In this document: positions 8,234 through 22,139 of the stretch, one piece after another
How the letters are laid out: each line of letters begins with the position of its first letter
How positions within the stretch are numbered: position 1 is the stretch's first letter
Assembly: GCA_013696555.1 (NCBI GenBank)
Contig: JACCYJ010000093.1
Span: forward strand, 1 to 54,818
DNA from: Nocardioidaceae bacterium
GTDB lineage: Bacteria > Actinomycetota > Actinomycetes > Propionibacteriales > Nocardioidaceae
Reading direction: 5' to 3'
Length of the DNA stretch: 54,818 nucleotides
Notes under the pieces: generated by a model
Seen by the model: only the letters and a program-made list of their open reading frames with translations
Told to the model about the DNA's origin: nothing
Databases searched by the model: none
Made by a program: the position numbers and the translations under genes

Positions 8234-8322
8234 ACCGGTGGGCAATCGACGGATGAGGGACCGGTGGGCATGTCAGCCCGGCGCACTATGGTGCGACCCA
8301 TGCCGGCGGCACGGGGGTTTGG

Positions 8323-11300
8323 GTGGCGCTGAGCATCCATCGCGCAGAGCGCGCCGACGCGCTGGTGCGCGGGCTGGGCGGCGTCCTGGCGACCGGCCAA
8401 CCGGACCCGTTCGCGCGGGAGATCGTTGCCGTACCGGCTCGCGGGGTCGAGCGGTGGGTGACGCAGCGGTTGTCGTACCACCTCGGCTCGCACGATGCCG
8501 CGGGGATCTGCGCGAACGTCGACTTCCCGTCACCCGGCCGGCTGGTGGCCGACTGCATAGCCGCAGCCGACGGAAGGGAGTCCGACGACGACCCGTGGGC
8601 ATCACGCCGACTGGTTTGGACCCTTCTCGAGATGGTCGACGGCGACATCCCGGCGACACAAGTCGACCGTCGGTTCCTCGTCGCACACCACCTGACCCGG
8701 CTCTTCACGTCGTACGGGGAGCAGCGCCCCAGCATGGTGCGCAGCTGGGCTGCCGGACAGGTCACCGACGGCGCCGGCGGCGCCGTCCCGGCGGATCTGG
8801 TGTGGCAGGCCGAGCTGTGGCGCCGGGTGCGGACCGAGATCGGATCCCCCAGCCCCCCTGAACGCCTGGCAGGCGCCGTCTCGGTGCTGTCTGCCGACCC
8901 CCACCTCGTGGACCTGCCGGACCGGGTCTCGGTCTTCGGTCCGACCCGGTTGACCACCGAACAGGTGCAGGTGCTGACCGCGCTGGGGGAGCACCGCGAT
9001 ATCCACCTCTGGCTGCTGCACCCGTCGGCCATGTTGTGGGACGCCGTGGCCCAAGCGACGCCGTCCAACTCGCGGCGCCACGCCAATCCGACGATCGCGG
9101 TGCCGCGGCACCGGCTGCTCGCCTCACTCGGCCGGGACGCGCGCGAGATGCAGCTCATCCTGGCCGGCGCACCCGCGACAGACCGGCACCACCCTCTCGA
9201 CGCACCAGCGAAAACGCTGCTCGGTCGGATACAGGGCGATCTGCGCGACGATCGGGTGCCCGCGCCGACGCAGGAACTACAACCCGACGATCGCAGTCTG
9301 CAGGTCCACGCCTGCCACGGCAGGTCACGCCAGGTAGAGGTGCTCCGCGAGGTGCTGCTCGGGCTGCTCGAGGCCGATCCCACACTCGAGCCACGCGACG
9401 TGCTGGTGATGTGCCCGGACATCGAAACCTACGCACCGCTGATCTCGGGCACGTTCGGGCTCGGTGACACCGACGTCTCCACGTCGCATCCTGGGCACCG
9501 GCTGCGGGTACGGCTCGCGGACCGCTCGTTGCGGCAGACCAATCCGCTCCTCGACACGATCGCCCGACTGCTTGACCTGGCCGATGCCCGGGTGACCGCC
9601 TCCCAGGTGCTCGACTTGGTCTCGCTGCCACCGGTGCGCCGGCGGTTCAAGCTCGACGACGAGGACCTCGAACGCCTGGCCGAGTGGATCAGCACGTCAG
9701 GGGTGCGCTGGGGCCTCGACGCCGAGCACCGCGAGCCGTACCGGATGGCCGGCGTCCGACAAAACACCTGGCAGGCGGGCCTCGACCGGCTGCTGCTCGG
9801 CGTCACCATGCCCGAGGACGATCTGCAGTGGCTCGGCCTCGCGCTGCCGCTCGACGACGTCGACTCCGGCGACATCGACCGCGCCGGCCGGCTCGGCGAG
9901 CTCGTCGAGCGCCTCGGCACCATCCTGGACGCCCTCAACGGCGAGCACTCCGTGCGCCACTGGCTCGCCACGCTTTCGGGCGCGCTCGACCTGCTCACCG
10001 ACGTCGCGGAGTCCGACGAATGGCAGCTCGCCCAGGCCCGGCGTGAGCTCGGCGACCTCGCAACCAGCGCCGGGGAGCGCGTCGACCACATCCAGCTGAG
10101 GTTGGGAGACGTCCGGGCGCTGCTCGCCGACCGGCTGAAGGGGCGTCCGACCCGGGCCAACTTCCGGACCGGCAACCTCACGATGTGCTCGATGGTGCCG
10201 ATGCGATCGGTGCCGCACCGCGTCATCTGCCTGCTCGGGCTCGACGACGGTGTGTTTCCCCGCAGCACCGGCGTCGACGGGGACGACATCCTGGCCCGTG
10301 GCCCGCTGGTCGGCGAGCGGGACCGCCGCAGCGAGGACCGGCAGCTGCTGCTCGACGCGATCATGGCCGCTGAGGAACACCTCATCGTCCTCTACACCGG
10401 TGCTGACGAGCGCACCGGCGCCGAACGCCCGCCGGCCGTGCCGCTGGGCGAGATCCTCGACGTCGTCGACGCCACCGTCCACACCGACGACGGCCGCCCG
10501 GCCCGCGAGCACGTCGTGGTGCGACACCCGCTGCAGCCGTTCGACGCCCGAAACTTCGAGCCGGGTGTGCTCGGCGTACGCGGATCATTCAGCCATGACC
10601 AGGGGGCACTCGCCGGCGCCGAAGCAGCGGCTCGGCCGCGCCAGCCGGAGCCGCCGCTGCTGGCCATGCCCTTGGCTCCGCATGATGATCCCGACGGAGT
10701 CGTGCCGCTCGACCGGCTGGTGCGCTTCCTGGAGCACCCGGTTCGCGGGTTCTTCACCCTGCGCCTGGGGATCGGCGTACCCGAGGAGGACGAACAGCTC
10801 GACGATGCGCTGCACGCCGAGCTGCAGCCGCTGGACAAGTGGGCGGTCGGCGACCGGTGGCTCCAGGCCCGGCTCGCCGGCGCCGACCCGGACGCCGTCA
10901 AACATGTCGAGTGGCTCCGGGGCACGTTGCCACCGGGCGCTCTGGGGCACGCCTTGCTGACCGAGGTGGTCGCCGAAGGCGGACCACTGATCATGGCCGG
11001 AGAAGGGGAGCGAGTCGGCGAGGCGGAGTCGTACGACGTGTCGGTCCCGCTGCCCGACGGACGGGTCGTGGCCGGCACTGTCGGCGCCGTCTACGGAAGG
11101 ACCGTCGCCCGGACCGTCTACTCCCGGCTCGGCCCCAAGCACCGACTCCGCGCCTGGGTGCTGCTGCTCGCGCTCGCCGCCTCGCGACCCGGCAACGACT
11201 GGCGGACCGTGACGATCGGCCGCGGACGCGCGAAGGGCAAGCCACCGCAGCGCTCGGTGCTCGTCCCACCAGACGACCCGGCGAGCGTGCTGGGGGCGCT

Positions 11301-11586
11301 GGTCGACCTGCGCGACCGCGGGCTGCGCGAGCCGCTGCCACTGCCCTTGGTTGCGGCGCACGAGTACGCCGCCTCCCGCCACGCCGGTGACACCGATGAG
11401 CTGTCGCGCCTGGCGGCGGGAAAGGGCTGGTCAGGCAGCTTCGATGGTGCCCTCGACGACTGGCACCTGCGGCTGTGGGGCGGGGAGGCGCCGTTCGACA
11501 GGGTGACCGAGGGCACGCCGTTCTACGAGCTCGCGCGCGAGCTGTGGTGGCCGCTGCTGGACGCCGAATCCTTGGGACCGGCGTGA
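8323..11586 (+). CDS. recC: Exodeoxyribonuclease V gamma subunit RecC
   Basis: 1087 aa with a RecC-like N-terminus (ALSIHRAERADALV..EIVAVPARGVERW). It is the first gene of a coupled recC-recB-recD triplet, the usual actinobacterial order. Confidence 0.9.
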   Translation: MALSIHRAERADALVRGLGGVLATGQPDPFAREIVAVPARGVERWVTQRLSYHLGSHDAAGICANVDFPSPGRLVADCIAAADGRESDDDPWASRRLVWTLLEMVDGDIPATQVDRRFLVAHHLTRLFTSYGEQRPSMVRSWAAGQVTDGAGGAVPADLVWQAELWRRVRTEIGSPSPPERLAGAVSVLSADPHLVDLPDRVSVFGPTRLTTEQVQVLTALGEHRDIHLWLLHPSAMLWDAVAQATPSNSRRHANPTIAVPRHRLLASLGRDAREMQLILAGAPATDRHHPLDAPAKTLLGRIQGDLRDDRVPAPTQELQPDDRSLQVHACHGRSRQVEVLREVLLGLLEADPTLEPRDVLVMCPDIETYAPLISGTFGLGDTDVSTSHPGHRLRVRLADRSLRQTNPLLDTIARLLDLADARVTASQVLDLVSLPPVRRRFKLDDEDLERLAEWISTSGVRWGLDAEHREPYRMAGVRQNTWQAGLDRLLLGVTMPEDDLQWLGLALPLDDVDSGDIDRAGRLGELVERLGTILDALNGEHSVRHWLATLSGALDLLTDVAESDEWQLAQARRELGDLATSAGERVDHIQLRLGDVRALLADRLKGRPTRANFRTGNLTMCSMVPMRSVPHRVICLLGLDDGVFPRSTGVDGDDILARGPLVGERDRRSEDRQLLLDAIMAAEEHLIVLYTGADERTGAERPPAVPLGEILDVVDATVHTDDGRPAREHVVVRHPLQPFDARNFEPGVLGVRGSFSHDQGALAGAEAAARPRQPEPPLLAMPLAPHDDPDGVVPLDRLVRFLEHPVRGFFTLRLGIGVPEEDEQLDDALHAELQPLDKWAVGDRWLQARLAGADPDAVKHVEWLRGTLPPGALGHALLTEVVAEGGPLIMAGEGERVGEAESYDVSVPLPDGRVVAGTVGAVYGRTVARTVYSRLGPKHRLRAWVLLLALAASRPGNDWRTVTIGRGRAKGKPPQRSVLVPPDDPASVLGALVDLRDRGLREPLPLPLVAAHEYAASRHAGDTDELSRLAAGKGWSGSFDGALDDWHLRLWGGEAPFDRVTEGTPFYELARELWWPLLDAESLGPA

Positions 11587-14500
11587 GCAGCCCGCCGCCG
11601 TTCAACAGTTGCGGTGACCTGCCGACCGGGACGACCGTCTTGGAGGCGAGTGCGGGCACCGGCAAGACGTTCACGATCGCGGCATTGGTCACCCGGTACG
11701 TCGCCGAGGGTCATGCCGAGCTGAGCGAGCTGATGCTCGTCACCTTCGGGCGGGCGGCGACCCAAGAGCTGCGGGAGCGGGTACGAGAGCGGCTCGTGAG
11801 CGCCGAGCGTGGCCTGGCCGACCCGGCGGCCGCGCGTGCCGACAGAGACGACGACCTGCTGCGGCAGCTCGCGAAGCCCGACGACGCCGAGGTGGCCCTG
11901 CGGCGCAAGCGGCTGGTCACCGCGCTCGCGGACTTCGACGCCGCCACGATCGCCACGACGCACGCGTTCTGTCAGCAGATGCTGATCGGGCTGGGCGTCG
12001 CCGGCGACTTCGAACCGGATGCGGTGTTCGTCGAAGACGTCGACGACATCATCACCGAGGTGGTCGACGACCTCTACCTCCGCAAGTGGGGACGGCCCGA
12101 CGCCGACCCGCCGCTGATGACGTACCCCGAAGCACAGTCGCTTGCTCGGACCGTGGTCGGTGACCGGCATGCGCTGATCGAGCCGCGGGACGCCGATCCG
12201 GACTCGGTGGCGGCCGCGCGGGTCCGGTTCGCCGAAGCCGTGCGCGCGGAAGTGGACCGGCGCAAGCGGCAGCGGCGATTGCGCGACTACGACGACCTGC
12301 TGACCCGGTTGCGCGACGCGCTACTCGACCCGGTCCGCGGTGAGTCGGCCTGTGCTCGCGTCCGGTCGCGCTACTCCGTGGTGATGGTCGACGAGTTCCA
12401 GGACACCGACCCGGTGCAGTGGCAGATCCTGCGCACTGCCTTCCACGGCCACACGACGCTGGTGCTGATCGGTGACCCGAAGCAGGCGATCTACGCCTTC
12501 CGCGGCGGCGACGTGACGACGTACCTGCTAGCGAGGCGAGATGCTTCCGCCGAGGCCACGCTGGCGAAGAACTGGCGCAGCGACGAGGTCCTGGTCGAGG
12601 GGCTCGGTCACGTGTTCGGCCAGGCAGCGCTGGGTGATCCCGGCATCGTGGTGCGGCCGGTGGACTCCGCGCATCCGGTGCGGCGGCTGAACGGAGCCCC
12701 GATCGACGCCCCGCTGCGGCTGCGGGTGCTCACCCGGGCGGCACTCGGGCAGAAACCCCGGGCCAAGCCGAAGGTCGGCGCGGTTCGCCCGGCGGTGGCC
12801 AGAGACGTGACAGCCGAGCTGGTAAGACTCCTCGACAGCAAGGCGCAGTTGCGGATCGACGGCAAATCCCGTCCGGTCGCGCCTGGCGACGTAGCCGTGC
12901 TGGTGCACACCAACCCGCAGGCGACGCTGGTGCACGACACGCTCCGAGCGGCCGGTGTGCCCGCCGTTCTCACCGGGGCCGTCGACGTCTTCCGCACCGC
13001 GATGGCGGCGGAGTGGCTGGTGCTGCTGCAGGCCCTCGAGCAGCCGCACCGGAAGGCCCGCGCGCGCACCGCTGCCCTCGGGTGCTTCCTCGGGTGGGAC
13101 GCGGCTGGCCTCGCGGCGGCCGGTGACGCCGCCATGGAGGAGCTCGGGCCGCGTCTCAGCGAGTGGGCCGCCGTCCTCGATCGCCGTGGCGTCCCAGCAC
13201 TGCTCGAGGTGGTCACCGGGGGTGGTCAGCTGCTGGAACGGTTGCTGGTGACAGCAGAGGGGGAGCGGCAGTTGACCGACCTGCGTCACATCGGCGAGGC
13301 GCTGCACGCCGCCGCGGTCGCCGAACAGCTCGGCACCTCGGCGCTCGTCGAGTGGCTGGCTCGGCGCATCCGCGATGCCCGCCCCGACGTCGAGGAGCGC
13401 AGCCGTCGGCTGGAGTCCGACGCCGAAGCCGTGCAGGTCATCACCGTACATCGCAGCAAGGGGTTGGAGTTCCCGGTCGTCTTCGTCCCGTTCGGATGGG
13501 ACCGCTGGATCCGCCCGGAGGACCACCCGCGGTTCCACGCGGACGGAGTGCGCAGCGTCGACGTCGGAGGCAAGGAAGGAGCGACGTACGCCGGGCACTG
13601 CGCCAGTCACGCCGAGGAAGAGACTGGCGAGTCGCTCCGGCTGCTCTATGTGGCGCTCACCCGGGCGCAGTGCCAGGTGGTCACCTGGTGGGCCCCTTCA
13701 TGGAACACAGCTGCCGCACCGATGCACCGGCTGCTTTTCGACGACTTCGCGCCGGAGCATGAACCCGCGGCCGAGGTCGCCCTGCCGGACGACGCTGCCG
13801 TCCGACAGCGGCTCTCGGACCTGCCGGACCGCTCGGGCGGAACGGTGTCGGTCGAGGAGGTCGTCGTGCCGCCGCAGCCGGTGGTGTGGGCGCCACCCGG
13901 CCGCACTCCACCGGCCCTGGTGGTGGCGACGTTCGACCGGACCCTGGACACCGCGTGGCGGCGGACGTCGTACTCGGCCCTGACAGCGGCCGCTCACGCC
14001 GTGCAGGGCGTCGCGAGCGAGCCGGAGGAGCGCGGGCTCGACGACGAGCCCGAGGTTGTCGAGGTGGTCACCGGCGGCGAGGACTCGGCTGACGAGGTGT
14101 TACGGGCAGTGACGTCGCCGATGGCCGGGCTACCGAGCGGCACCGGCTTCGGAATCGTCGTGCACTCGGTGCTGGAGCAGGTCGACACCGGCGCTGCCGA
14201 TCTCGCGGCCGAGCTCGGCGAGCGGAGCCGGGAGGTGCTCGCTCGCCGGTTGAGCACTTCCTACACCGCCGACACGCTGGCCGCCGCTCTACTGCCGGCG
14301 ATGGAAACCCCGCTCGGGCCGCTGACCGACGGAGTCCGGCTCCGGGACATCACAGCGGCGGATCGGCTGGCGGAGATGGACTTCGAGCTGCCGTTGGCCG
14401 GCGGGGACGACCCGATGGGGACGGCGACGACGCTGGCTGGCATCGCGGACCTGCTACGCCGACGCCTGTCCGACGACGATCCGTTCGCCGCGTACCCCGA

Positions 14501-14948
14501 TGGGCTCACCGGACCCGGCGTGCAGCAGCAACAACTGCGCGGATACCTCACCGGCAGCCTGGATGCAGTGCTGCGGCTCCGCGAGGCCGATGGCGAGCCG
14601 CGCTATGTGGTGGTCGACTACAAGACGAACTGGCTGGGCGGGGCGGCAGCCGAGCCGCTCACCGCCTGGCACTACCGGCCCGCGGCGCTCACCGAGGCGA
14701 TGCTCGCCTCGCACTACCCGTTGCAGCTCCTGCTGTATCTCGTCGCCCTGCACCGCTATCTGCGGTGGCGGCAACCGGGGTACGACCCGGAGCGACACCT
14801 GCGCGGCGGGCTGTACCTGTTCCTGCGCGGGATGTGCGGGCCGGCCACACCGGTGGTGGCCGGGGTGCCCTGCGGAGTCTTCGGCTGGGTGCCGCCATCT
14901 GGGCTGGTGGACGAGCTCTCGAGGCTACTTGCGGGTGGTGCTCCGTGA
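11583..14948 (+). CDS. recB: Exodeoxyribonuclease V beta subunit RecB (helicase-nuclease)
   Basis: GTG at 11583 overlaps the recC stop (GTGA). Walker A EASAGTGKTFTIA. Motif II VMVDEFQDTD. C-terminal PD-(D/E)xK-type motif VVDYKTN. The tracked ORF start at 11475 lies inside recC and is unlikely. Confidence 0.9.
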   Translation: MSSPPPFNSCGDLPTGTTVLEASAGTGKTFTIAALVTRYVAEGHAELSELMLVTFGRAATQELRERVRERLVSAERGLADPAAARADRDDDLLRQLAKPDDAEVALRRKRLVTALADFDAATIATTHAFCQQMLIGLGVAGDFEPDAVFVEDVDDIITEVVDDLYLRKWGRPDADPPLMTYPEAQSLARTVVGDRHALIEPRDADPDSVAAARVRFAEAVRAEVDRRKRQRRLRDYDDLLTRLRDALLDPVRGESACARVRSRYSVVMVDEFQDTDPVQWQILRTAFHGHTTLVLIGDPKQAIYAFRGGDVTTYLLARRDASAEATLAKNWRSDEVLVEGLGHVFGQAALGDPGIVVRPVDSAHPVRRLNGAPIDAPLRLRVLTRAALGQKPRAKPKVGAVRPAVARDVTAELVRLLDSKAQLRIDGKSRPVAPGDVAVLVHTNPQATLVHDTLRAAGVPAVLTGAVDVFRTAMAAEWLVLLQALEQPHRKARARTAALGCFLGWDAAGLAAAGDAAMEELGPRLSEWAAVLDRRGVPALLEVVTGGGQLLERLLVTAEGERQLTDLRHIGEALHAAAVAEQLGTSALVEWLARRIRDARPDVEERSRRLESDAEAVQVITVHRSKGLEFPVVFVPFGWDRWIRPEDHPRFHADGVRSVDVGGKEGATYAGHCASHAEEETGESLRLLYVALTRAQCQVVTWWAPSWNTAAAPMHRLLFDDFAPEHEPAAEVALPDDAAVRQRLSDLPDRSGGTVSVEEVVVPPQPVVWAPPGRTPPALVVATFDRTLDTAWRRTSYSALTAAAHAVQGVASEPEERGLDDEPEVVEVVTGGEDSADEVLRAVTSPMAGLPSGTGFGIVVHSVLEQVDTGAADLAAELGERSREVLARRLSTSYTADTLAAALLPAMETPLGPLTDGVRLRDITAADRLAEMDFELPLAGGDDPMGTATTLAGIADLLRRRLSDDDPFAAYPDGLTGPGVQQQQLRGYLTGSLDAVLRLREADGEPRYVVVDYKTNWLGGAAAEPLTAWHYRPAALTEAMLASHYPLQLLLYLVALHRYLRWRQPGYDPERHLRGGLYLFLRGMCGPATPVVAGVPCGVFGWVPPSGLVDELSRLLAGGAP

Positions 14949-16852
14949 CCGTGGTCGACGAGACTCCGCTGGTCGACGAGGGCGACCCCTATGACGTCCG
15001 GCTGGCGCTAGGGGCGACGGGGTCGTTGCGTGCGTTCAACCAGGCAGGGGTGCTCACATCCGCAGACGTGCATGTCGCCTCTCGGCTCGGCCGGCTGGCG
15101 CAAGAGCACGAGGAGCGGGTGCTGCTCGCGGTGGCCCTGGCGGTGCGCGGCGTACGACTCGGATCGGTCTGCGTCGACCTCCCCGGCCTCCGGGAGACGG
15201 TGACGTCCGACGACGACTCGGGCACCGACCTCGATGCCTTGCCGTGGCCGGACCCGAGGGAGTGGCTCGAGGTCACCGCCGCCAGCTCGCTCGTCGCGGT
15301 CGGAGACTCGGTGGTGCCGGCTCCTTCGAGCCAGCAGACCGGTCATCCGCTGCGCCTGGTCGGGTCGTTGCTCTACCTCGACCGCTACTGGCGTCAGGAG
15401 CAGCTGGTACGCGAGGAGCTCGACGCCCGGGCCTCGAGGGTCGTACCGCCCGTCGACGCTGACGCCCTCCGGGCCGGGCTGGCGCGGCTCTTCCCCGACC
15501 AGGACCCCGACCGGCAGCGGTTGGCGGCGGCCACTGCGGTGCTGCGGTCGATCACGGTGGTTGCGGGTGGTCCCGGCACCGGTAAGACGACCACGGTGGC
15601 GCGCCTCATCGAGCTGCTGCGTTCGCTGCCTGGCCAGGCGCCGCGGATCGCCTTGGCCGCGCCGACGGGCAAGGCGGCTGCCCGGCTCGAGGAGGCGGTG
15701 CGCGGACTGGATGTCACCGACATCTCCGCGTCGACGCTGCATCGGCTGTTGGGGCGCAAACCGGGCAGCCGCAGCCGATTCCGCCACGACCGTCATGACC
15801 GGTTGCCGTACGACGTGGTCGTCGTCGACGAGTCGTCGATGGTGTCGCTCACGCTGATGTCGCGGTTGATGGAGGCGCTGCGGCCGGAGTCCCGGCTGGT
15901 GCTGGTAGGCGACCCGGATCAGCTGACGTCGGTGGAGGCGGGCGCAGTGCTCGGCGACGTCGTCGCGCGGCCGGCTCCGACAGGAGCAACGGTGCCGGCG
16001 CAGCTGGCGGAGGTGGTGCCGGCGGACATTGCGGAAGCCGACCGGGCTGAGCTGCGCAACGGTGTCGTGCGGCTCACGGTGATTCGTCGCTTCGGTGCGG
16101 AGATCGGGGCGTTGGCCGCCGCGATCAGGGACCAGGACGAGGATGTCGTGCTGGCGCTGCTGCGCGACGGCGGGCCTTCGGTGTCGTATGTCGAAGCCGC
16201 GGAGGACGGGTCGCTGACTTCCGGCAAGCTTGGCGGGCTGCGCGACGACGTGGTGTCCGCCGCGGGGGCGCTCACCCAGGTAGCGGATGCCGAGCATGCT
16301 CGGGAGGCGCTGGTGGCGTTGGGTCGGCACCGGCTGCTGTGCGCGCACCGGCGCGGGCCCTACGGCGCGACGCACTGGACCGAGCAGGTCGAGCGGTGGC
16401 TCGCCGAGGCACTTGGCCGGCCTCCGGACGCGGGCACGTGGTACCGAGGGCAGCCGTTGCTGGTGACCGCCAACGACTACGAGATCGAGCTGTTCAACGG
16501 CGACAGTGGTGTGGTGGTCGACGGCGGTGAGCGGGGTCTGCTGGCCGCATTCGCCCGAGGTGGTGCACCCATGTTGCTCAGCCCGCACCGGCTCTCGGCG
16601 GTGCAGACCGTGCATGCCATGACAGTCCACAAGGCCCAGGGCAGCCAGTTCGACCGGGTGAGCCTGGTGCTGCCGCCGGAGCAGTCCCGGGCGCTGACCC
16701 GCGAGCTGCTGTACACCGCCGTGACCCGAGCGCAGACGCACGTCCGCGTCATCGGGTCGGAGACCGCCGTACGCCGGGCGGTGTCGCGTCGGGTGGCGCG
16801 GGCGAGCGGACTGCGCGGGCCGGTGGCTGCAGGCAGCCATGAGCAGTTGTGA
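14945..16852 (+). CDS. recD: Exodeoxyribonuclease V alpha subunit RecD
   Basis: GTG at 14945 overlaps the recB stop (GTGA). Walker A VAGGPGTGKTTTV, Walker B VVVDESSMV, C-terminal HAMTVHKAQGSQF. Confidence 0.9.
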   Translation: MTVVDETPLVDEGDPYDVRLALGATGSLRAFNQAGVLTSADVHVASRLGRLAQEHEERVLLAVALAVRGVRLGSVCVDLPGLRETVTSDDDSGTDLDALPWPDPREWLEVTAASSLVAVGDSVVPAPSSQQTGHPLRLVGSLLYLDRYWRQEQLVREELDARASRVVPPVDADALRAGLARLFPDQDPDRQRLAAATAVLRSITVVAGGPGTGKTTTVARLIELLRSLPGQAPRIALAAPTGKAAARLEEAVRGLDVTDISASTLHRLLGRKPGSRSRFRHDRHDRLPYDVVVVDESSMVSLTLMSRLMEALRPESRLVLVGDPDQLTSVEAGAVLGDVVARPAPTGATVPAQLAEVVPADIAEADRAELRNGVVRLTVIRRFGAEIGALAAAIRDQDEDVVLALLRDGGPSVSYVEAAEDGSLTSGKLGGLRDDVVSAAGALTQVADAEHAREALVALGRHRLLCAHRRGPYGATHWTEQVERWLAEALGRPPDAGTWYRGQPLLVTANDYEIELFNGDSGVVVDGGERGLLAAFARGGAPMLLSPHRLSAVQTVHAMTVHKAQGSQFDRVSLVLPPEQSRALTRELLYTAVTRAQTHVRVIGSETAVRRAVSRRVARASGLRGPVAAGSHEQL

Positions 16853-16859
16853 TGACGTT

Positions 16860-16878
16860 TTACTCATGACATGAGTAA
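16860..16878. promoter_or_regulatory. 19-bp perfect palindrome overlapping the start codon of the RHH ORF (candidate operator)
   Basis: TTACTCATG-A-CATGAGTAA, an AT-rich palindrome in a GC-rich background. The ATG at 16871 lies in its right arm. Confidence 0.6.
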
Positions 16879-16990
16879 GCGGCTCCAGGTGGTCGTCGAC
16901 GACCGCGAGTTCGCGGACCTCCGACGCATTGCCGAAGCGGAGGGCCTGACCGTGTCCGAGTGGGTGAGGCAGACTGCCCGGCTGACTAAC
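16871..16990 (+). pseudogene. Ribbon-helix-helix (CopG/VapB-like) antitoxin, apparently truncated and orphan
   Basis: MSKRLQVVVDDREFADLRRIAEAEGLTVSEWVRQTARL is a typical RHH antitoxin N-terminus. The frame then runs without a stop antisense through the convergent methyltransferase (to 17359), and no toxin gene follows. The 3' boundary is arbitrary. Confidence 0.45.
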
Positions 16991-17621
16991 CCCGCCTCGC
17001 CGTTCCCAGAACGTGCGGCGACGTGGGTAGCGCCACCCGGATGTCGGGCAGCCGAAAGGACTCGAGTTGGTCGATGCGAAAGCCGGCCGATTCGATCTCG
17101 CTTATCGTGTCGCGGTGGGTATGGCAGCCGCCAGCGATGCGCGGCCAGACAGTCGCATCGAGGCCGCGCTGAACCCGCGCCAGTCGAGGGGTGTCGGCGC
17201 GAACGTGCTCGAAGAAACGCAGCTGGCCACCGGGGCGTAACACCCGGTGGATCTCGGCCAGCGCCTGGACCGGATCGGGCACGGAGCACAACACCAACGA
17301 GGTCACGGCGGCGTCAACGCTGGCGTCGGCCATCGGCAGTCGTGATGCCTCACCCGTGACCACCGCCACGGGGACGCTCGCTTCGAGCGCGGCCAGCTCG
17401 GCGAGCCCACGAAGGTGCGGCTCAGGCTCCAGCGCGAGTACGTGGCTCACCGACGTGGGGTAGTGCGCGAAGTTGAGCCCGTTGCCGGCACCCACCTCGA
17501 CGACTCTGCCGGTCAGCCCCGCGAGCAGCCGATGCCGATGGGGGCCGAGCTCCGGCTCCATCCGCTGACTCAGCCATGCGTAGGCACGGGCGAAGAAGGG
17601 GTGTCGGTACGAGTCAGCCAT
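16986..17621 (-). CDS. Class I SAM-dependent methyltransferase
   Basis: Motif I VVEVGAGNGLN, post-I/II region, and LRPGGQLRFFEH. Start taken at MADSYRH (ATG 17621); ATG 17633 is an alternative. Confidence 0.8.
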   Translation of the reverse strand: MADSYRHPFFARAYAWLSQRMEPELGPHRHRLLAGLTGRVVEVGAGNGLNFAHYPTSVSHVLALEPEPHLRGLAELAALEASVPVAVVTGEASRLPMADASVDAAVTSLVLCSVPDPVQALAEIHRVLRPGGQLRFFEHVRADTPRLARVQRGLDATVWPRIAGGCHTHRDTISEIESAGFRIDQLESFRLPDIRVALPTSPHVLGTARRG

Positions 17622-17760
17622 GGACCTCAGCATGACCGAAACGGCACCGGGTGAGCAGCAGCGCCGAAGCAGCATGCATGCGATGTACGAGGGTCGAGTG
17701 CATCTGCAGCCGCATGATGCCTGCGGACAGACGGGCGCGAACTCGCTACCGTAGCCGCCC

Positions 17761-18522
17761 ATGAGGCGCGAAGATGCCCGTCAGCGAGCTGAGGTCATGG
17801 CGGAGCGCTGGCGCTCCGGTGACACGTTGGCGGCGATCGGAGATGACTTCGGACTCTCCCGCCAGCGGGTGCAGCAGATCCTCCATCACCATGGTCTGGC
17901 CACCGCTGAGGATGCCGCGCAGGCGCGGCGCAAGGCACGAGACCGCGTCGACGACGACGACCGGCAGCAAATGCGCGCCTGGTTGACGAAGAACCCCGGT
18001 GCCAGCCGCAGTCAGCTGGCAGCCGCGGTCCACCTGCCGTCGGCTCGAGTAGGGGCCCTGCTTGAGGACGACATGCGTCGCCTTCTCGTCACCAACCACA
18101 CCCAGGCCTCGCGGTGGAGCGACGACGAGGTCCTCGACGGCTTGCGCCGAGCCGCCGCAGAGTCCGGGCAACCGCTCACCGGAGAGGCCTACCGTCGCTG
18201 GATGGCGGAGCACGGCGGCCCCACCAGTGGTCGGATCGGGCAGCGGTGGGGGACGTGGCGTAAAGCCTGCCTCGCCGCTGGCCTGGACGTGGGTCCGGTC
18301 AAGCGGACCTATAACCGACGCTGGTCGAAGGGACTCATGATCTCCCTCGTCGCGGACTACCTCGCGGAGACCAAGGGTGCCGGCACGCACTCTGGGTTCG
18401 AGGAGTGGGCGCGACACCGCAGGGACTCCCCAAGTCCAACAACGCTGCGCAACACCTTCGGGGCATGGACCGAGGCACGACGAGCCGGTCTGCGGCTACT
18501 GGCGCAGCGTTCAGCGCACTGA
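17761..18522 (+). CDS. HTH protein with two homing-endonuclease-associated repeats and no nuclease domain
   Basis: N-terminal sigma-70 region-4-like HTH (DTLAAIGDDFGLSRQRVQQIL). Two about 55-aa repeats of the form W..DE/..L..AA...G..L....Y..W.......PS..T+...FG.W..A...AGL (WSDDEVLDGL..QRWGTWRKACLAAGL and WSKGLMISLV..NTFGAWTEARRAGL). Confidence 0.6.
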   Translation: MRREDARQRAEVMAERWRSGDTLAAIGDDFGLSRQRVQQILHHHGLATAEDAAQARRKARDRVDDDDRQQMRAWLTKNPGASRSQLAAAVHLPSARVGALLEDDMRRLLVTNHTQASRWSDDEVLDGLRRAAAESGQPLTGEAYRRWMAEHGGPTSGRIGQRWGTWRKACLAAGLDVGPVKRTYNRRWSKGLMISLVADYLAETKGAGTHSGFEEWARHRRDSPSPTTLRNTFGAWTEARRAGLRLLAQRSAH

Positions 18523-18585
18523 TCGCACGAGTGCCGAAACCTCGGGTACTTGCTGGATTGGCTGCCGCTCTGTCATCTGGTCAGT

Positions 18586-19668
18586 GTGGACCAGACTGAT
18601 CCCGTGCCGCCGTCATGGGTTCTGCACGTAGACCTCGACCAGTTCGTCGCGGCCGTGGAGGTGCTGCGCCGACCGGAGCTGGCACGGCTACCGGTTGTCG
18701 TGGGCGGTCGCGGGGACCCCAGCGAGCGAGGCGTCGTGTCGACCGCATCGTACGAAGCGCGAGCCTTCGGAGTCGGCTCGGGGATGCCGCTGCGGATGGC
18801 GGCCCGCAAGTGCCCGGACGCGGTTTTCGTGCCGGTCGATGCACCCGCGTACGAGGCGGCGTCCTTGGCCGTGATGGCGGTCCTTCGGACGCTGACTCCC
18901 GTGGTGGAGGTGCTCGGCTGGGACGAGGCGTTCCTCGCCGTGGAGACCGCGGACCCGGAAGCCTTCGGGCGCGATGTCCAAGCGCAGATCCTGGCGCGGT
19001 GCCAGCTGCACAGCTCCGTGGGCGTGGGTGACAACCGGCTTCGAGCGAAGATCGCGACCGGTTACGCCAAGCCGGCGGGGATATTCCGGCTTACCGAGGA
19101 CAACTGGTTCGAGGTGATGGCGGACCGGGCGCCGGACGCCTTGTGGGGGATCGGGCGCAAGACCGCGAAGCGGCTGGCGGCTCACGGCTTGCACACTGTC
19201 CGGCAGCTCGCCGACGCCGACCCGACCTGGCTGGCCGAGCAGCTAGGCCCGGTTATGGGTCCGTGGTACCGGCGGCTGGCCCGTGGTGTCGACCGCACTC
19301 TGGTCACGTCGGACCCCTACATCGCTCGGTCTCACGGCCGCGAGACCACCTTCCAGGCGGACATCACGGCGCGCTCCGAGGTCGAGGAGCACGTCCGTCG
19401 GCTCGCCCGCCGGGTCGCCCACGATGTGCACGGCGACGGACGGCCGGTGATTCGGGTGTGGTTGAAGGTGCGGTACGCACCGTTTCAGACGCACACCTAC
19501 AGCGTCGCGCTGAAGCCGCCGACCGACGAGGCGAGCGTCATCGAGCGGGCAGCCGTTGGCTTGCTGACCAAGGTCGACGCGGCACGGGCGGTCCGGCTGC
19601 TCGGCGTCCGGGCCGAGCTGGCTGCGCCGGGGCCGGACTCGGAGGACCGTGTCCAGGTGTCGTCCTGA
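18586..19668 (+). CDS. dinB: DNA polymerase IV (Y-family)
   Basis: LHVDLDQFVAAVEV (catalytic Asp motif), SYEARAFGV, GIGRKTAKRL (HhH). Start is uncertain: in-frame GTG at 18586 or 18604, and the tracked ORF begins at 18550. Confidence 0.88.
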   Translation: MDQTDPVPPSWVLHVDLDQFVAAVEVLRRPELARLPVVVGGRGDPSERGVVSTASYEARAFGVGSGMPLRMAARKCPDAVFVPVDAPAYEAASLAVMAVLRTLTPVVEVLGWDEAFLAVETADPEAFGRDVQAQILARCQLHSSVGVGDNRLRAKIATGYAKPAGIFRLTEDNWFEVMADRAPDALWGIGRKTAKRLAAHGLHTVRQLADADPTWLAEQLGPVMGPWYRRLARGVDRTLVTSDPYIARSHGRETTFQADITARSEVEEHVRRLARRVAHDVHGDGRPVIRVWLKVRYAPFQTHTYSVALKPPTDEASVIERAAVGLLTKVDAARAVRLLGVRAELAAPGPDSEDRVQVSS

Positions 19669-19706: not shown

Positions 19707-20255
19707 CTAGCGGATCAGGTCTGCCGGGCGGATCCTGACCGGGTACGGCTGCGCGACGGTATGACTCTCGTCATCGACGACATGAGCGACTTCGACGTAC
19801 GCGTCGTCGATGAGCTGCCAGGCGGTGAACGAGGGCTCCTTCGGGTCGACGACCCAGTACGACGCGCAGCCGGCTGCTTCGAATCGTGAGTGCTTGAGGG
19901 TCAGGTCGATGCGGCGAGTGCTGGGGGAGAGAACCTCCACGGCGAGCACCGGCGCTGTCGGCAGGTCGCGGTCGGTCACGTCGCGCCGACGGGCGACCAG
20001 CAGGTCCGGCTGCATGACCGTGTCGTCAGCCAGCGCCACGTCGAACGGCGCCAGCAGGACCTCGAGCTCCGGCGGGCATGCCTGCCGGAGCAAGAGATGC
20101 AGCTCTCCGACCGCTCGTTGGTGGTAGTGGCCCGGTGCCGGGGTCACGATCAGCGACCCGTCGATGAGCTCGTAGCGGTGCCCGTCATCGGGCATCGATT
20201 CCAGATCGGCACGGGTCAGCGGCCGGCTGCGCGGCAGGGTCGTCACAATCCCCAT
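19707..20255 (-). CDS. Uma2-family (PD-(D/E)xK) endonuclease
   Basis: MPDDGHRYELIDG, QPDLLV and LAVEVLSPST motifs typical of Uma2/DUF820. ATG at 20255 is preceded by GGAGGAGG. The tracked ORF start at 20351 is an extension. Confidence 0.8.
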   Translation of the reverse strand: MGIVTTLPRSRPLTRADLESMPDDGHRYELIDGSLIVTPAPGHYHQRAVGELHLLLRQACPPELEVLLAPFDVALADDTVMQPDLLVARRRDVTDRDLPTAPVLAVEVLSPSTRRIDLTLKHSRFEAAGCASYWVVDPKEPSFTAWQLIDDAYVEVAHVVDDESHTVAQPYPVRIRPADLIR

Positions 20256-20368
20256 GGTGCCTCCTCCCATCATTCGCGACCAGCGGTACGCGTTGTCGTC
20301 GATCCACGATCGGAGTGTTGTCGACGGACCCGACTCTCGGTGCCCGTCCACAAGTCACACTGGGAGAC

Positions 20369-21361
20369 ATGTCCGACGACTTCGTGGTCGCCCGCAACCC
20401 GGAGCCGGAGTCGACGCTGCCGTACCTGCTGCGGCTGCCGCTCGGGAGCGATGGTGTGGTGCTGAAGGCGCGCGAGACGTGGCCTCGCACCACCAAGGTC
20501 TACTGCCACCGAGCGACCGGTTGGCCGGCCGAGGCGGAGGTGATCGAGCGGGTGCCGGTGCGGTCGTGCGTGCGACGCGGTGCAGCCATCGACCTGGTGC
20601 TCGACCGAGGGCGGGAGAATCGCTCGCAGTTCGTGATCACGCGCATCCGCGGCGGCCGGGAAGCGGTCTTCTGGCAAACCGCCCGCACAACAAGGCAGGC
20701 CCGGCCCAACGTCGGTCTGCCGACGAGCCGAGCCGCGGGGCTCGCGGGCCTGCGGATCCTCGTCGACAGCCACGAGCGCTACCCCTACACGTTCAGCCAT
20801 CAGCAGGTGACGACGCAGCGGCGGGCGCTGCCTGCTGGTGACTACGGCGTGGAGGTCGACGAGCGTCTGGTCGCGGTTGTCGAGCGCAAGAGCCTCGCTG
20901 ACCTTGTGAGCACCCTGACCATGGGTCGGCTGAAGTTCGCCCTTGCGGAGCTGGCGTCCCAGCCGCGCGCCGCTGTCGTCGTCGAGGACCGCTACTCGGC
21001 CGTGTTCAAGCTGGAGCGGGTACGCCCAGCGATCGTCGCCGAGGGGTTGGCCGAGTGCCAGGTGCACTGGCCGAACGTCCCCATCGTGTTTTGCGAGACC
21101 CGTGCACTCGCGCAGGAGTGGACGTACCGCTTCCTCGGGGTCGCGGCTGCATCCGCGGCCGAGGAACGGTTGGCTGAGCAGGTGGTCATGACGTTCCCCA
21201 CCGGTGTCCGGCTGCCGCCACCTGAGCCGACGACCGCCGAGGTGCGTCGCTGGGCAATGGACCACGGGTTCCCGGTCTCCGATCGCGGCAAGCTAAAGCC
21301 GGAGGTGTGGGCGGCGTACAACACCCACACCTCCGCGGATCTCAGTGGCGCGGACGGCTGA
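20369..21361 (+). CDS. ERCC4-domain nuclease with an unknown N-terminal domain and a C-terminal Lsr2-like DNA-binding domain
   Basis: ERCC4 signature GDYGVEV..VAVVERKSLADL (GDxn-ERKxxxD). C-terminal TAEVRRWAMDHGFPVSDRGKLKPEVWAAYN aligns with the Lsr2 C-terminal domain ([29 protein letters not shown]). ATG at 20369 follows GGGAGA. Confidence 0.75.
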   Translation: MSDDFVVARNPEPESTLPYLLRLPLGSDGVVLKARETWPRTTKVYCHRATGWPAEAEVIERVPVRSCVRRGAAIDLVLDRGRENRSQFVITRIRGGREAVFWQTARTTRQARPNVGLPTSRAAGLAGLRILVDSHERYPYTFSHQQVTTQRRALPAGDYGVEVDERLVAVVERKSLADLVSTLTMGRLKFALAELASQPRAAVVVEDRYSAVFKLERVRPAIVAEGLAECQVHWPNVPIVFCETRALAQEWTYRFLGVAAASAAEERLAEQVVMTFPTGVRLPPPEPTTAEVRRWAMDHGFPVSDRGKLKPEVWAAYNTHTSADLSGADG

Positions 21362-22139
21362 CCTTGACCAGTTCCTCACGGGCACCATCGGGTGACACCC
21401 CGACCGCGAGGACCAGCCCGACCCCCTTGGCGTAGAACTTGTGCTCCAGCACCCACGGTGTCAGCGGAGTGCTGTCACCGGTGGCCAGCACGTCGCGATA
21501 GCGACCGGCGCGGACCTTGACGTCTTCCTTGGTCGAAAGGATCTGACCGGCGTCCTCGGCCTCACCCTCGTAGTACTCCTGGCGGTAGCTGCACCCGGGT
21601 TTCGGGTTGGCCGGGATCAGGATGCCGGCCTGGGCCCCGTCGACCCCGTACTCCCAGGAGCCCTCGCGGCTGACGACCTCGCCGTTCTCGTACTCCTTGG
21701 TGTTCTCGCCCAGATACCAGATGCTGCCCCCGCGGTCTTGCGCGTACCAGTCGAAGGTGTTCTCGACCAGATCGCCGTGCTCTCGGACCACGTCATGAAC
21801 CACGCGTGCCTTGATGCCGCGCACCATCCGGGTGCGATCCGTCACCCTGATCGTGACCCGCTGGGTGCTCTTGCCGTCGGTCTCGCGGTACGTCCACTTG
21901 CTGCCGGGCCTCATCGGCCAGTACGGGTTGGTGATCCGGGGGGTGAAGTCGGCCGGGTCCAGGTCGATGCGTGAGGCGCCGTGGGGCAGCTCGTACGGGC
22001 CGGGGAGCCGGCATCGGTTGTGCTCCGGTGCTGCGCCGCCGCCCTGGGCAGCCCCCGTGGTGAGCCAGGACATGCCGGCCATCGAAGCCACTCCTGCCGC
22101 AGCCAACAAGGAAAGTGTCTTGCGCGGTGAAGGGCTCAT
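21342..22139 (-). CDS. Secreted conserved hypothetical protein
   Basis: MSPSPRKTLSLLAAAGVASMAGMSW.. is signal-peptide-like, followed by a non-repetitive Trp/Tyr/Glu-rich globular sequence. It is the only protein-like part of the 788-aa tracked ORF. Confidence 0.6.
   Translation of the reverse strand: MSPSPRKTLSLLAAAGVASMAGMSWLTTGAAQGGGAAPEHNRCRLPGPYELPHGASRIDLDPADFTPRITNPYWPMRPGSKWTYRETDGKSTQRVTIRVTDRTRMVRGIKARVVHDVVREHGDLVENTFDWYAQDRGGSIWYLGENTKEYENGEVVSREGSWEYGVDGAQAGILIPANPKPGCSYRQEYYEGEAEDAGQILSTKEDVKVRAGRYRDVLATGDSTPLTPWVLEHKFYAKGVGLVLAVGVSPDGAREELVKVSRPRH

Follow-up and report, generated by a model that had tools for sequence, protein, structure and literature searches.

A predicted ERCC4-type nuclease with an Lsr2-type DNA-binding tail in a Nocardioidaceae genome and its homologues in Actinomycetota

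The stretch of DNA analysed here (the window) comprises 54,818 nucleotides of contig JACCYJ010000093.1 from a Nocardioidaceae bacterium (assembly GCA_013696555.1). At 20369..21361 on the forward strand it harbours a complete open reading frame (ORF) encoding a protein of 330 amino acids (aa), in which an N-terminal beta-barrel, an ERCC4 nuclease domain and an Lsr2-type tail follow each other; it is referred to below as the ERCC4-Lsr2 gene. Its 330 codons run without interruption. The open frame on this strand spans 20315-21361 and contains an in-frame GTG at 20315 upstream of the ATG at 20369, from which the 330-aa product is read; the N-termini of homologues and the position of a -10-like hexamer (see below) led to the rejection of the GTG as start codon. 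The third-position GC of the ORF is 0.81, a value typical for coding sequence in this 69 % GC window (the DNA of the region ranges from 65 to 73 % GC). A family alignment of 241 sequences, the window protein and 240 homologues, forms the basis of all counts of invariant residues given here. In this alignment the protein is co-linear with its homologues, and no stop or frameshift separates the domains. The ERCC4-Lsr2 gene is real and intact. A first, sequence-only reading of the locus had proposed the three-part architecture of the protein, and this was borne out by Pfam, by a profile search of the Protein Data Bank (PDB), by AlphaFold2 (AF2) models, by Foldseek and by the alignment.

The ERCC4 nuclease domain occupies residues 128-273 (20750..21187, forward strand), and is supported by Pfam, by alignment with the Hef nuclease of Pyrococcus (1j22) and by Foldseek. 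Family PF02732 (ERCC4) matches residues 132-255 with 64 bits (E 1.8e-17, cutoff 24), and its profile is fully covered from position 1 to 140. The PDB search, performed with a profile made from 36 homologues, retrieved Hef nuclease 1j22 (E 2e-7) with the VDSxE, GDY, ERKS and DL motifs aligned. The AF2 model has predicted local distance difference test (pLDDT) values of 90-98 across residues 130-260, and Foldseek superimposed it on Hef 1j22 with a template modelling (TM) score of 0.79 (E 8e-8), while XPF and Mus81 structures were matched too. By profile, motif and fold the window protein is a member of the ERCC4 superfamily. Alignment with Hef placed the catalytic residues at D133 and E136 (20765-20776), at G157-D158-Y159 (20837-20845) and at E172-R173-K174 (20882-20890), to which D178 is added, all on the forward strand. 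D133, E136, G157, D158, Y159, E172, R173, K174 and D178 are invariant in all 241 sequences. The complete catalytic signature recognised in the sequence-only reading was thus confirmed, with none of its residues substituted, and the alignment points to an active site that is under strict purifying selection. A Pfam scan of the window protein gave no match to any HhH family, and hence no sign of the (HhH)2 domain. In the AF2 model a single long helix (residues 245-273) is followed by a linker and the Lsr2 fold, again with no (HhH)2 domain. The lack of this domain makes the protein an atypical member of the ERCC4 superfamily.

The tail begins behind a variable linker rich in proline and alanine (residues 274-286; 21188..21226, forward strand). 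This linker is the least conserved segment of the alignment (column conservation 0.54) and differs in length among homologues. The Lsr2-type DNA-binding domain itself covers residues 287-320 (21227..21328, forward strand). PF23359 (Lsr2_DNA-bd) matches residues 287-318 with 37 bits (E 2.1e-9, cutoff 26.9), and in the PDB profile search the Lsr2 entries of Mycobacterium tuberculosis, 2kng and 6qkp, were found with E about 1e-5. AF2 models the tail as a helix (289-298), a loop carrying the RGK minor-groove motif (residues 306-308; 21284-21292, forward strand) and a second helix (311-328), with pLDDT 93-95. R293, W295, A296 and G307 are invariant. RGR is found in 232 of the 241 sequences and RGK in 7, so that the window copy has a minority variant of the motif. 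The C-terminal segment had been read as Lsr2-like with an RGK motif from the letters alone, and profile matches and model agree with that reading: as modelled, the tail is a genuine Lsr2-type helix-loop-helix DNA-binding module carried on a flexible linker. The N-terminal dimerisation and oligomerisation domain of Lsr2 was not found, since a Pfam scan with E values up to 1 returned only ERCC4 and Lsr2_DNA-bd, and the N-terminus is modelled as a beta-barrel unrelated to that domain. The window protein is therefore not an Lsr2 protein, despite the names of some database entries. A similar tail occurs elsewhere: the PADLOC model PDLC03328 (MTase_II) matches residues 284-321 of the window protein through its profile positions 532-569 (E 8e-7). 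The presence of such a tail on a type II methyltransferase model makes the Lsr2 module look like a promiscuous, portable DNA anchor, and suggests that Lsr2 DNA-binding modules have been fused to several kinds of DNA enzyme.

The N-terminal domain (residues 1-104; 20369..20680, forward strand) could not be placed in the sequence-only reading. AF2 and Foldseek gave it a predicted fold, an eight-stranded, arginine-rich beta-barrel that would resemble the 3'-phosphoesterase (PE) domain of LigD, to which it shows no similarity in sequence. When the N-domain was modelled alone, residues 4-104 formed this barrel (pLDDT 81, predicted TM score 0.70). Its only PDB matches in Foldseek with TM >0.5 are the LigD-PE entries 3p43, 3n9d, 3n9b and 3p4h (TM 0.52-0.60, probability 0.99-1.0); the best four E values are 5e-3 to 1.5e-2, and 3p4h has E 0.12. 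No fold match was obtained in the viral fold library BFVD. A comparison with a small PE alignment, consisting of the real LigD-PE gene of locus L010 (see below) and four PDB sequences, gave an hhalign probability of 0.3 % and at most 0.5 bits in hmmsearch --max. PF13298 (LigD_N) gave no match in the Pfam scan of the window protein, and the metal-site motif H-x5-H-x-D-x-R is not present in the N-domain. An active LigD phosphoesterase was rejected on these grounds, the similarity in hhalign and HMMER and the His/His/Asp site both being absent; the N-domain is at most a catalytically inactive structural relative of LigD PE. Two further candidates were discarded. A zinc site formed by C46, H47 and C67 is contradicted by the mycobacterial clade, which has A and Y at the positions of C46 and H47, and the name "cyclic nucleotide-binding domain", given to some UniRef entries, found no support in Pfam at E values up to 1.

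Residues 1-127 have a pI of 10.9 and include 19 arginines. Invariant or nearly invariant in this part are W38-P39-R40, W52-P53, R65, C67, D75, R80, R85-S86-Q87, W102-Q103 and R112-P113. The last of these lie in a conserved basic linker (residues 105-127; 20681..20749, forward strand) with the consensus RTxKQARPNVxLPTxRAxG, which was modelled as unstructured with low pLDDT in both AF2 models and has a column conservation of 0.76, equal to that of the folded domains. The fold and the basic charge of the N-domain fit nucleic-acid binding. With moderate confidence, the model is taken to represent a PE-like barrel that has been kept as a nucleic-acid-binding module and not as an enzyme. The N-domain was found in only 783 clusters at 50 % identity (phmmer against 1.8 billion representative proteins), and in intact representatives it is joined to ERCC4. 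Otherwise the representatives at this identity level are fragmentary or chimeric, and their architecture is uninformative.

A search with the full-length window protein yields over 7,700 database clusters, of which the top 120 all match it with 64-82 % identity over the full length and carry both PF02732 and PF23359. The ERCC4-Lsr2 architecture is not rare but present in thousands of database proteins. Where homologues have been named, they are called "ERCC4 domain-containing protein", "Lsr2 family protein" or "hypothetical protein", and some records are labelled "histone-like nucleoid-structuring protein Lsr2". No paper treating ERCC4 together with Lsr2 was found, nor any experimental or comparative work on the architecture. 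The domain combination is already visible in databases while the family is uncharacterised, in agreement with the remark in the sequence-only reading that no characterised protein of this architecture was known. Genome matches include Serinicoccus, Ornithinimicrobium, Geodermatophilaceae, Ruania, Pseudactinotalea, Occultella, Nocardioidaceae and Enemella. A mycobacterial clade with ~54-57 % identity to the window protein occurs on the chromosomes of M. xenopi, M. servetii and Mycolicibacterium doricum. In tblastn searches 23 plasmids were matched, 22 of them across most of the protein length. Among the carriers are plasmids of M. avium, M. intracellulare and M. ulcerans, a 21-kb plasmid of M. 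intracellulare/lentiflavum, pMUM002 of M. liflandii, and plasmids of Rhodococcus, Pseudonocardia and Streptomyces. The family is spread over three classes of Actinomycetota, on chromosomes as well as plasmids, with identities of 54-82 % across orders and classes, and the window copy is a typical member. No full-length homologue was present among 50,697 phage records. A phage origin of the family was rejected on this basis, together with the lack of a BFVD fold match for the N-domain. Two Occultella copies look like decaying genes: in O. glacieicola the homologue (locus L015, ~9860-10825) is truncated at its N-terminus by an in-frame stop, and in O. gossypii (L019) only a fragment of 37 residues matches.

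The tail is not shared by all homologues. The copies of Enemella and Nitriliruptorales stop right after the ERCC4 domain, and proteins of this tail-less clade have ~270 aa, made up of N-domain and ERCC4. When the Nitriliruptorales protein (L016) was used as query, 118 of its 120 best matches lacked PF23359 and had ERCC4 only; they derive from Egicoccus, Acidimicrobiia and other Actinomycetota, and make up a large sister clade whose members belong to Nitriliruptoria and Acidimicrobiia. The existence of this clade indicates that the conserved functional unit is the N-domain plus ERCC4, and that the Lsr2 module is a clade-specific addition. It follows that the reading of AT-rich DNA cannot be the core function of the family.

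Upstream of the gene a -10-like hexamer, CACACT, lies at 20356..20361 on the forward strand, 7 nt before the ATG. Among 35 non-identical sequences upstream of homologues, 31 have a hexamer of the form [CT]ANNNT that terminates 4-7 nt ahead of the start codon, 18 times at -6, against a background of 0-2 per position. It often reads GGCAGACT or CACACT, and its carriers range from Nocardioidaceae to mycobacterial plasmids. In actinobacteria a -10 hexamer this near to the start codon is the hallmark of a promoter that gives rise to a leaderless mRNA. By analogy, the ERCC4-Lsr2 gene probably has a promoter of its own and a leaderless transcript. A generic sigma-70 promoter scan gave no match at the window gene. 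The sequence GGGAG in front of the ATG was considered as a Shine-Dalgarno sequence and rejected, since it is not conserved among homologues, unlike the -10 hexamer.

On the other side of this upstream region lies a Uma2-family gene (19707..20255, reverse strand; Pfam Uma2, 95 bits), which is a divergent neighbour and not a functional partner. It matches the PADLOC candidate PDC-S03 (E 8e-26) and phrog_16228 (E 2e-30). The gene and the intergenic gap of 113 bp (20256-20368) are as described in the sequence-only reading, which took the gap for a shared divergent promoter region. Its length stands, but shared regulation is not required: an own promoter would make the ERCC4-Lsr2 gene a self-contained unit, and the 113 bp need not be a regulatory region shared with Uma2. 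The neighbourhoods of about 30 homologous loci, from assemblies and plasmids, gave no support for Uma2 as a constant partner. In tblastn searches it occurred near a homologue in one of 19 genome loci only (L011), and there it is not adjacent, lying 1.1 kb off with one gene between; it was absent from the Pfam-annotated assembly loci and the plasmid loci of homologues. Furthermore, no other neighbour family recurs across lineages, as judged by tblastn of the window neighbours against the 19 loci, by all-against-all clustering of neighbouring ORFs and by a Pfam census. The census covered 126 neighbour proteins, and even its top families had no more than 3-4 members, most of them in related genomes. 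A conserved partner gene, Uma2 or other, was therefore rejected, as nothing is common beyond closely related genomes. The lack of a recurrent neighbour indicates that the nuclease gene acts alone. Many copies are situated among ordinary chromosomal and metabolic genes.

Genes of DNA repair are found near the nuclease gene in several lineages. The window itself contains a complete recC-recB-recD operon (8257-16852, forward strand) and dinB (18550-19668). Among homologues on long contigs, the one at L035 is among the nearest to the window protein (77 % identity). Upstream of it are recB and recD, the locus beginning inside recB, and it overlaps an orthologous dinB (61 % identity) by 4 bp. In the window, unlike in L035, Uma2 is located between dinB and the nuclease gene, and its position suggests a local rearrangement or insertion. 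At L012, L014 and L022 (two Nocardioidaceae metagenome-assembled genomes) recCBD is directly downstream of the homologue and a LigD Prim-Pol gene is upstream. The order and orientation of recCBD relative to the homologue in L012, L014/L022 and L035 differ from those in the window. An AdnAB-like pair is present near the homologue at L001. In Ornithinimicrobium sediminis (L010) a gene at 8289-9965 on the reverse strand encodes a LigD-like protein of 558 aa that combines PE and Prim-Pol domains and has no ligase domain. It is divergent from the homologue and separated from it by 36 bp, so that a genuine PE domain is encoded next to an N-domain with a predicted PE-like fold.

ERCC4 nucleases act as dimers and cut branched DNA near junctions between single-stranded and duplex DNA; they are structure-specific and not sequence-specific. 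The (HhH)2 domain that they usually have at the C-terminus binds the minor groove of duplex DNA non-specifically and helps dimerisation, and Lsr2 reaches into narrow, AT-rich minor grooves with the RGR loop of its C-domain. We favour a reading in which the window protein is a stand-alone, structure-specific endonuclease of the XPF/Mus81/Hef type that processes intermediates of repair, recombination or replication, on chromosomes as well as on plasmids and integrative elements, and we give it an even chance of being right. The predicted ERCC4 enzyme would be catalytically active and would act alone, without a partner gene. As other ERCC4 enzymes do, it may work as a dimer on branched DNA such as flaps, forks and nicked junctions. 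Because (HhH)2 is absent and the Lsr2 module stands at the same place, the tail is inferred to be the anchor for duplex DNA: it would grip the minor groove in place of the missing domain and probably bias binding to AT-rich, narrow-groove DNA. At the junction, the basic N-domain and the conserved basic linker could hold single-stranded DNA or a 3' end. The tail-less clade implies that the core enzyme works without the tail. The protein would thus trim branched DNA in repair or recombination and would not be a dedicated restriction enzyme. The high conservation across orders and classes counts for this reading, as do the repair-gene neighbours in several lineages, the many copies among ordinary chromosomal genes and the -10 hexamer kept in front of the start codon.

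Several observations weigh against it. Adjacency to repair genes is seen at only ~5 of the ~30 loci, and these genes were grouped into a category in retrospect. The N-domain matches the LigD-PE fold only moderately (TM about 0.6) and without support from the sequence. Neither a LexA box nor a RecA-NDp motif occurs in the 35 upstream regions, so that there is no sign of DNA-damage regulation, and regulation by SOS or PafBC was rejected. No characterised relative was found in the literature. Many copies are located on plasmids or beside transposases, integrases, toxin-antitoxin modules and restriction-like genes, and such mobile or restriction-like surroundings fit a role in mobile elements or in defence equally well.

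A role as accessory factor of mobile elements is possible, though on balance unlikely. The protein would resolve branched replication or recombination intermediates for stable inheritance of the element, or would act at Lsr2-silenced, AT-rich DNA of the element, and chromosomal copies would be remnants or cargo. Full-length homologues on 22 of the 23 matching plasmids are in line with this. On the 21-kb plasmid the gene is situated between a serine recombinase and ParA, and elsewhere homologues adjoin IS21, a Tn7-like tnsABC-tniQ set, and Tn3-type and serine recombinases; DUF932 is close to the homologue at two loci. At L041 (3679-8971) two tyrosine integrases are followed by a tail-less nuclease gene, starting at the stop of the second integrase, and then by ArdC (ArdcN and M78 peptidase), an arrangement that looks like the edge of an integrative element. 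Three separate matching places were found in pMYCCH.01 of M. chubuense (NC_018022.1) and two in a plasmid record of M. intracellulare (NZ_CP012886.2); several copies in one plasmid record suggest duplication together with a repeated element. However, at many loci there is no mobile-element gene within 7 kb of the homologue, the recombinases and transposases vary in type with none recurring, and the phage records lack the family. The biochemistry would be the same as that of the favoured branched-DNA endonuclease, from which the mobile-element role differs in biology and not in mechanism.

The sequence-only reading had proposed that the nuclease attacks AT-rich foreign DNA. In this explanation the Lsr2 tail recruits a composition-guided defence nuclease to AT-rich foreign DNA, and phages or plasmids are destroyed without self-marking by modification. 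What stands of the proposal is the Lsr2-type DNA-binding domain, which is genuine and encoded in host DNA of 65-73 % GC. Some surroundings also agree with it. An island at L021 holds NERD, HNH, ScoMcrA_N and a PLD-helicase, the M. xenopi copy is near VapBC modules and a SNF2 helicase, and the Uma2 neighbour in the window is a PADLOC candidate; the genomic location of the family is patchy and variable, and phage records lack it. The proposal is weakened by the large tail-less clade, which keeps the same N-domain and ERCC4 core, and by the carrier plasmids and integrative elements, which would be targets of their own nuclease. The only PADLOC match is the Lsr2-like tail of the methyltransferase model; PADLOC 2.0 gave no match of the nuclease to a defence model and no conserved system operon was found, so that membership of a known defence family was rejected. 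There is no partner or immunity gene, and many copies are found among housekeeping genes. Identities of 54-82 % across orders are far above those of typical fast-evolving defence genes. Moreover, ERCC4 enzymes recognise DNA structure and not sequence, and actinophages are generally as GC-rich as their hosts. Altogether a defence function seems unlikely. A narrower form, confined to the tailed clade, would be composition-guided restriction in which the nuclease is concentrated on AT-rich acquired DNA and cleaves it during replication or recombination, a nucleolytic counterpart of xenogeneic silencing without self-marking by methylation; we consider this more doubtful still.

A non-catalytic, nucleoid-associated Lsr2 paralogue that binds DNA and uses the ERCC4 fold as a dimerisation scaffold, as inactive ERCC4-fold domains in the manner of ERCC1, EME1 and FANCM do, would suit the database records that name homologues Lsr2 nucleoid-structuring protein, but it is very improbable, because the invariance of D133, E136, D158, E172, R173, K174 and D178 essentially excludes a purely structural Lsr2-like role and no family match to the Lsr2 N-terminal oligomerisation domain was obtained.

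Some other features of the window adjoin the genes discussed. A convergent gene of 265 aa (21342-22139, reverse strand) extends over the final 20 nt of the ERCC4-Lsr2 ORF. It has a third-position GC of 0.86, a signal-peptide-like N-terminus and no Pfam match. A terminator-like hairpin with a 14-bp stem (21300..21335, reverse strand) lies inside the region coding for the tail and belongs to this convergent gene. Directly after recD a small ribbon-helix-helix-like ORF is present (16871-17080, forward strand; NikA-like, E 1.7e-5, below the Pfam cutoff), the 3' part of which overlaps the 3' end of a gene for a class I S-adenosylmethionine-dependent methyltransferase (16986-17762, reverse strand). 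Between this methyltransferase gene and dinB, at 17761-18522 on the forward strand, a 253-aa protein is encoded that has an N-terminal helix-turn-helix (Sigma70_r4/HTH_23-like) and two homing endonuclease associated repeats (PF18780, E 1e-12), and that lacks a nuclease domain.

Nucleases of the XPF/Mus81/Hef type are well studied in archaea and eukaryotes, and to our knowledge no bacterial counterpart has been characterised. Once characterised, the family would extend the DNA repair or plasmid biology of actinobacteria and mycobacteria by a nuclease for branched DNA, and would show how the DNA-binding module of a nucleoid silencer has been put to new use in targeting DNA enzymes. In annotation, ERCC4-Lsr2 genes are wrongly named "Lsr2 family protein", and the adjacent Uma2 gene should not be taken to form one system with the ERCC4-Lsr2 gene.

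With Hef of Pyrococcus furiosus (1j22-1j25), the short-form XPF of Aeropyrum pernix (2bgw, 2bhn) and the eukaryotic XPF and Mus81 proteins, the window protein has in common the ERCC4 fold and the VDxxE, GDY, ERK and xDL motifs. Hef and XPF provide the working model of a dimeric, metal-dependent, structure-specific endonuclease, and by analogy the window protein would be expected to act alike. It differs from them in having an Lsr2-type module at the place of (HhH)2 and a basic beta-barrel instead of a helicase or helicase-like domain. Its family, with ~22 % identity to Hef, is bacterial, confined to Actinomycetota and often plasmid-borne. Phage ERCC4 nucleases (phrog_3490; Halorubrum tailed virus 27) are weakly similar (E 5e-8; 33 % identity over 149 aa), and their matches comprise the ERCC4 core only, never the full length. 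The LigD PE domains of Pseudomonas aeruginosa (3n9b, 3n9d) and archaea (3p43, 3p4h) appear to resemble the predicted N-domain as eight-stranded barrels of similar size and topology, and both proteins occur in contexts of DNA ends and repair; unlike LigD PE, the N-domain has no profile similarity to this family and no recognisable His-His-Asp Mn site. Lsr2 of M. tuberculosis (Rv3597c) is homologous to the tail over ~35 residues, with the R-x-W-A motif, the RG(R/K) loop and the second helix in common. In contrast to Lsr2, the window protein has a nuclease attached, lacks the oligomerisation domain and carries RGK instead of RGR.

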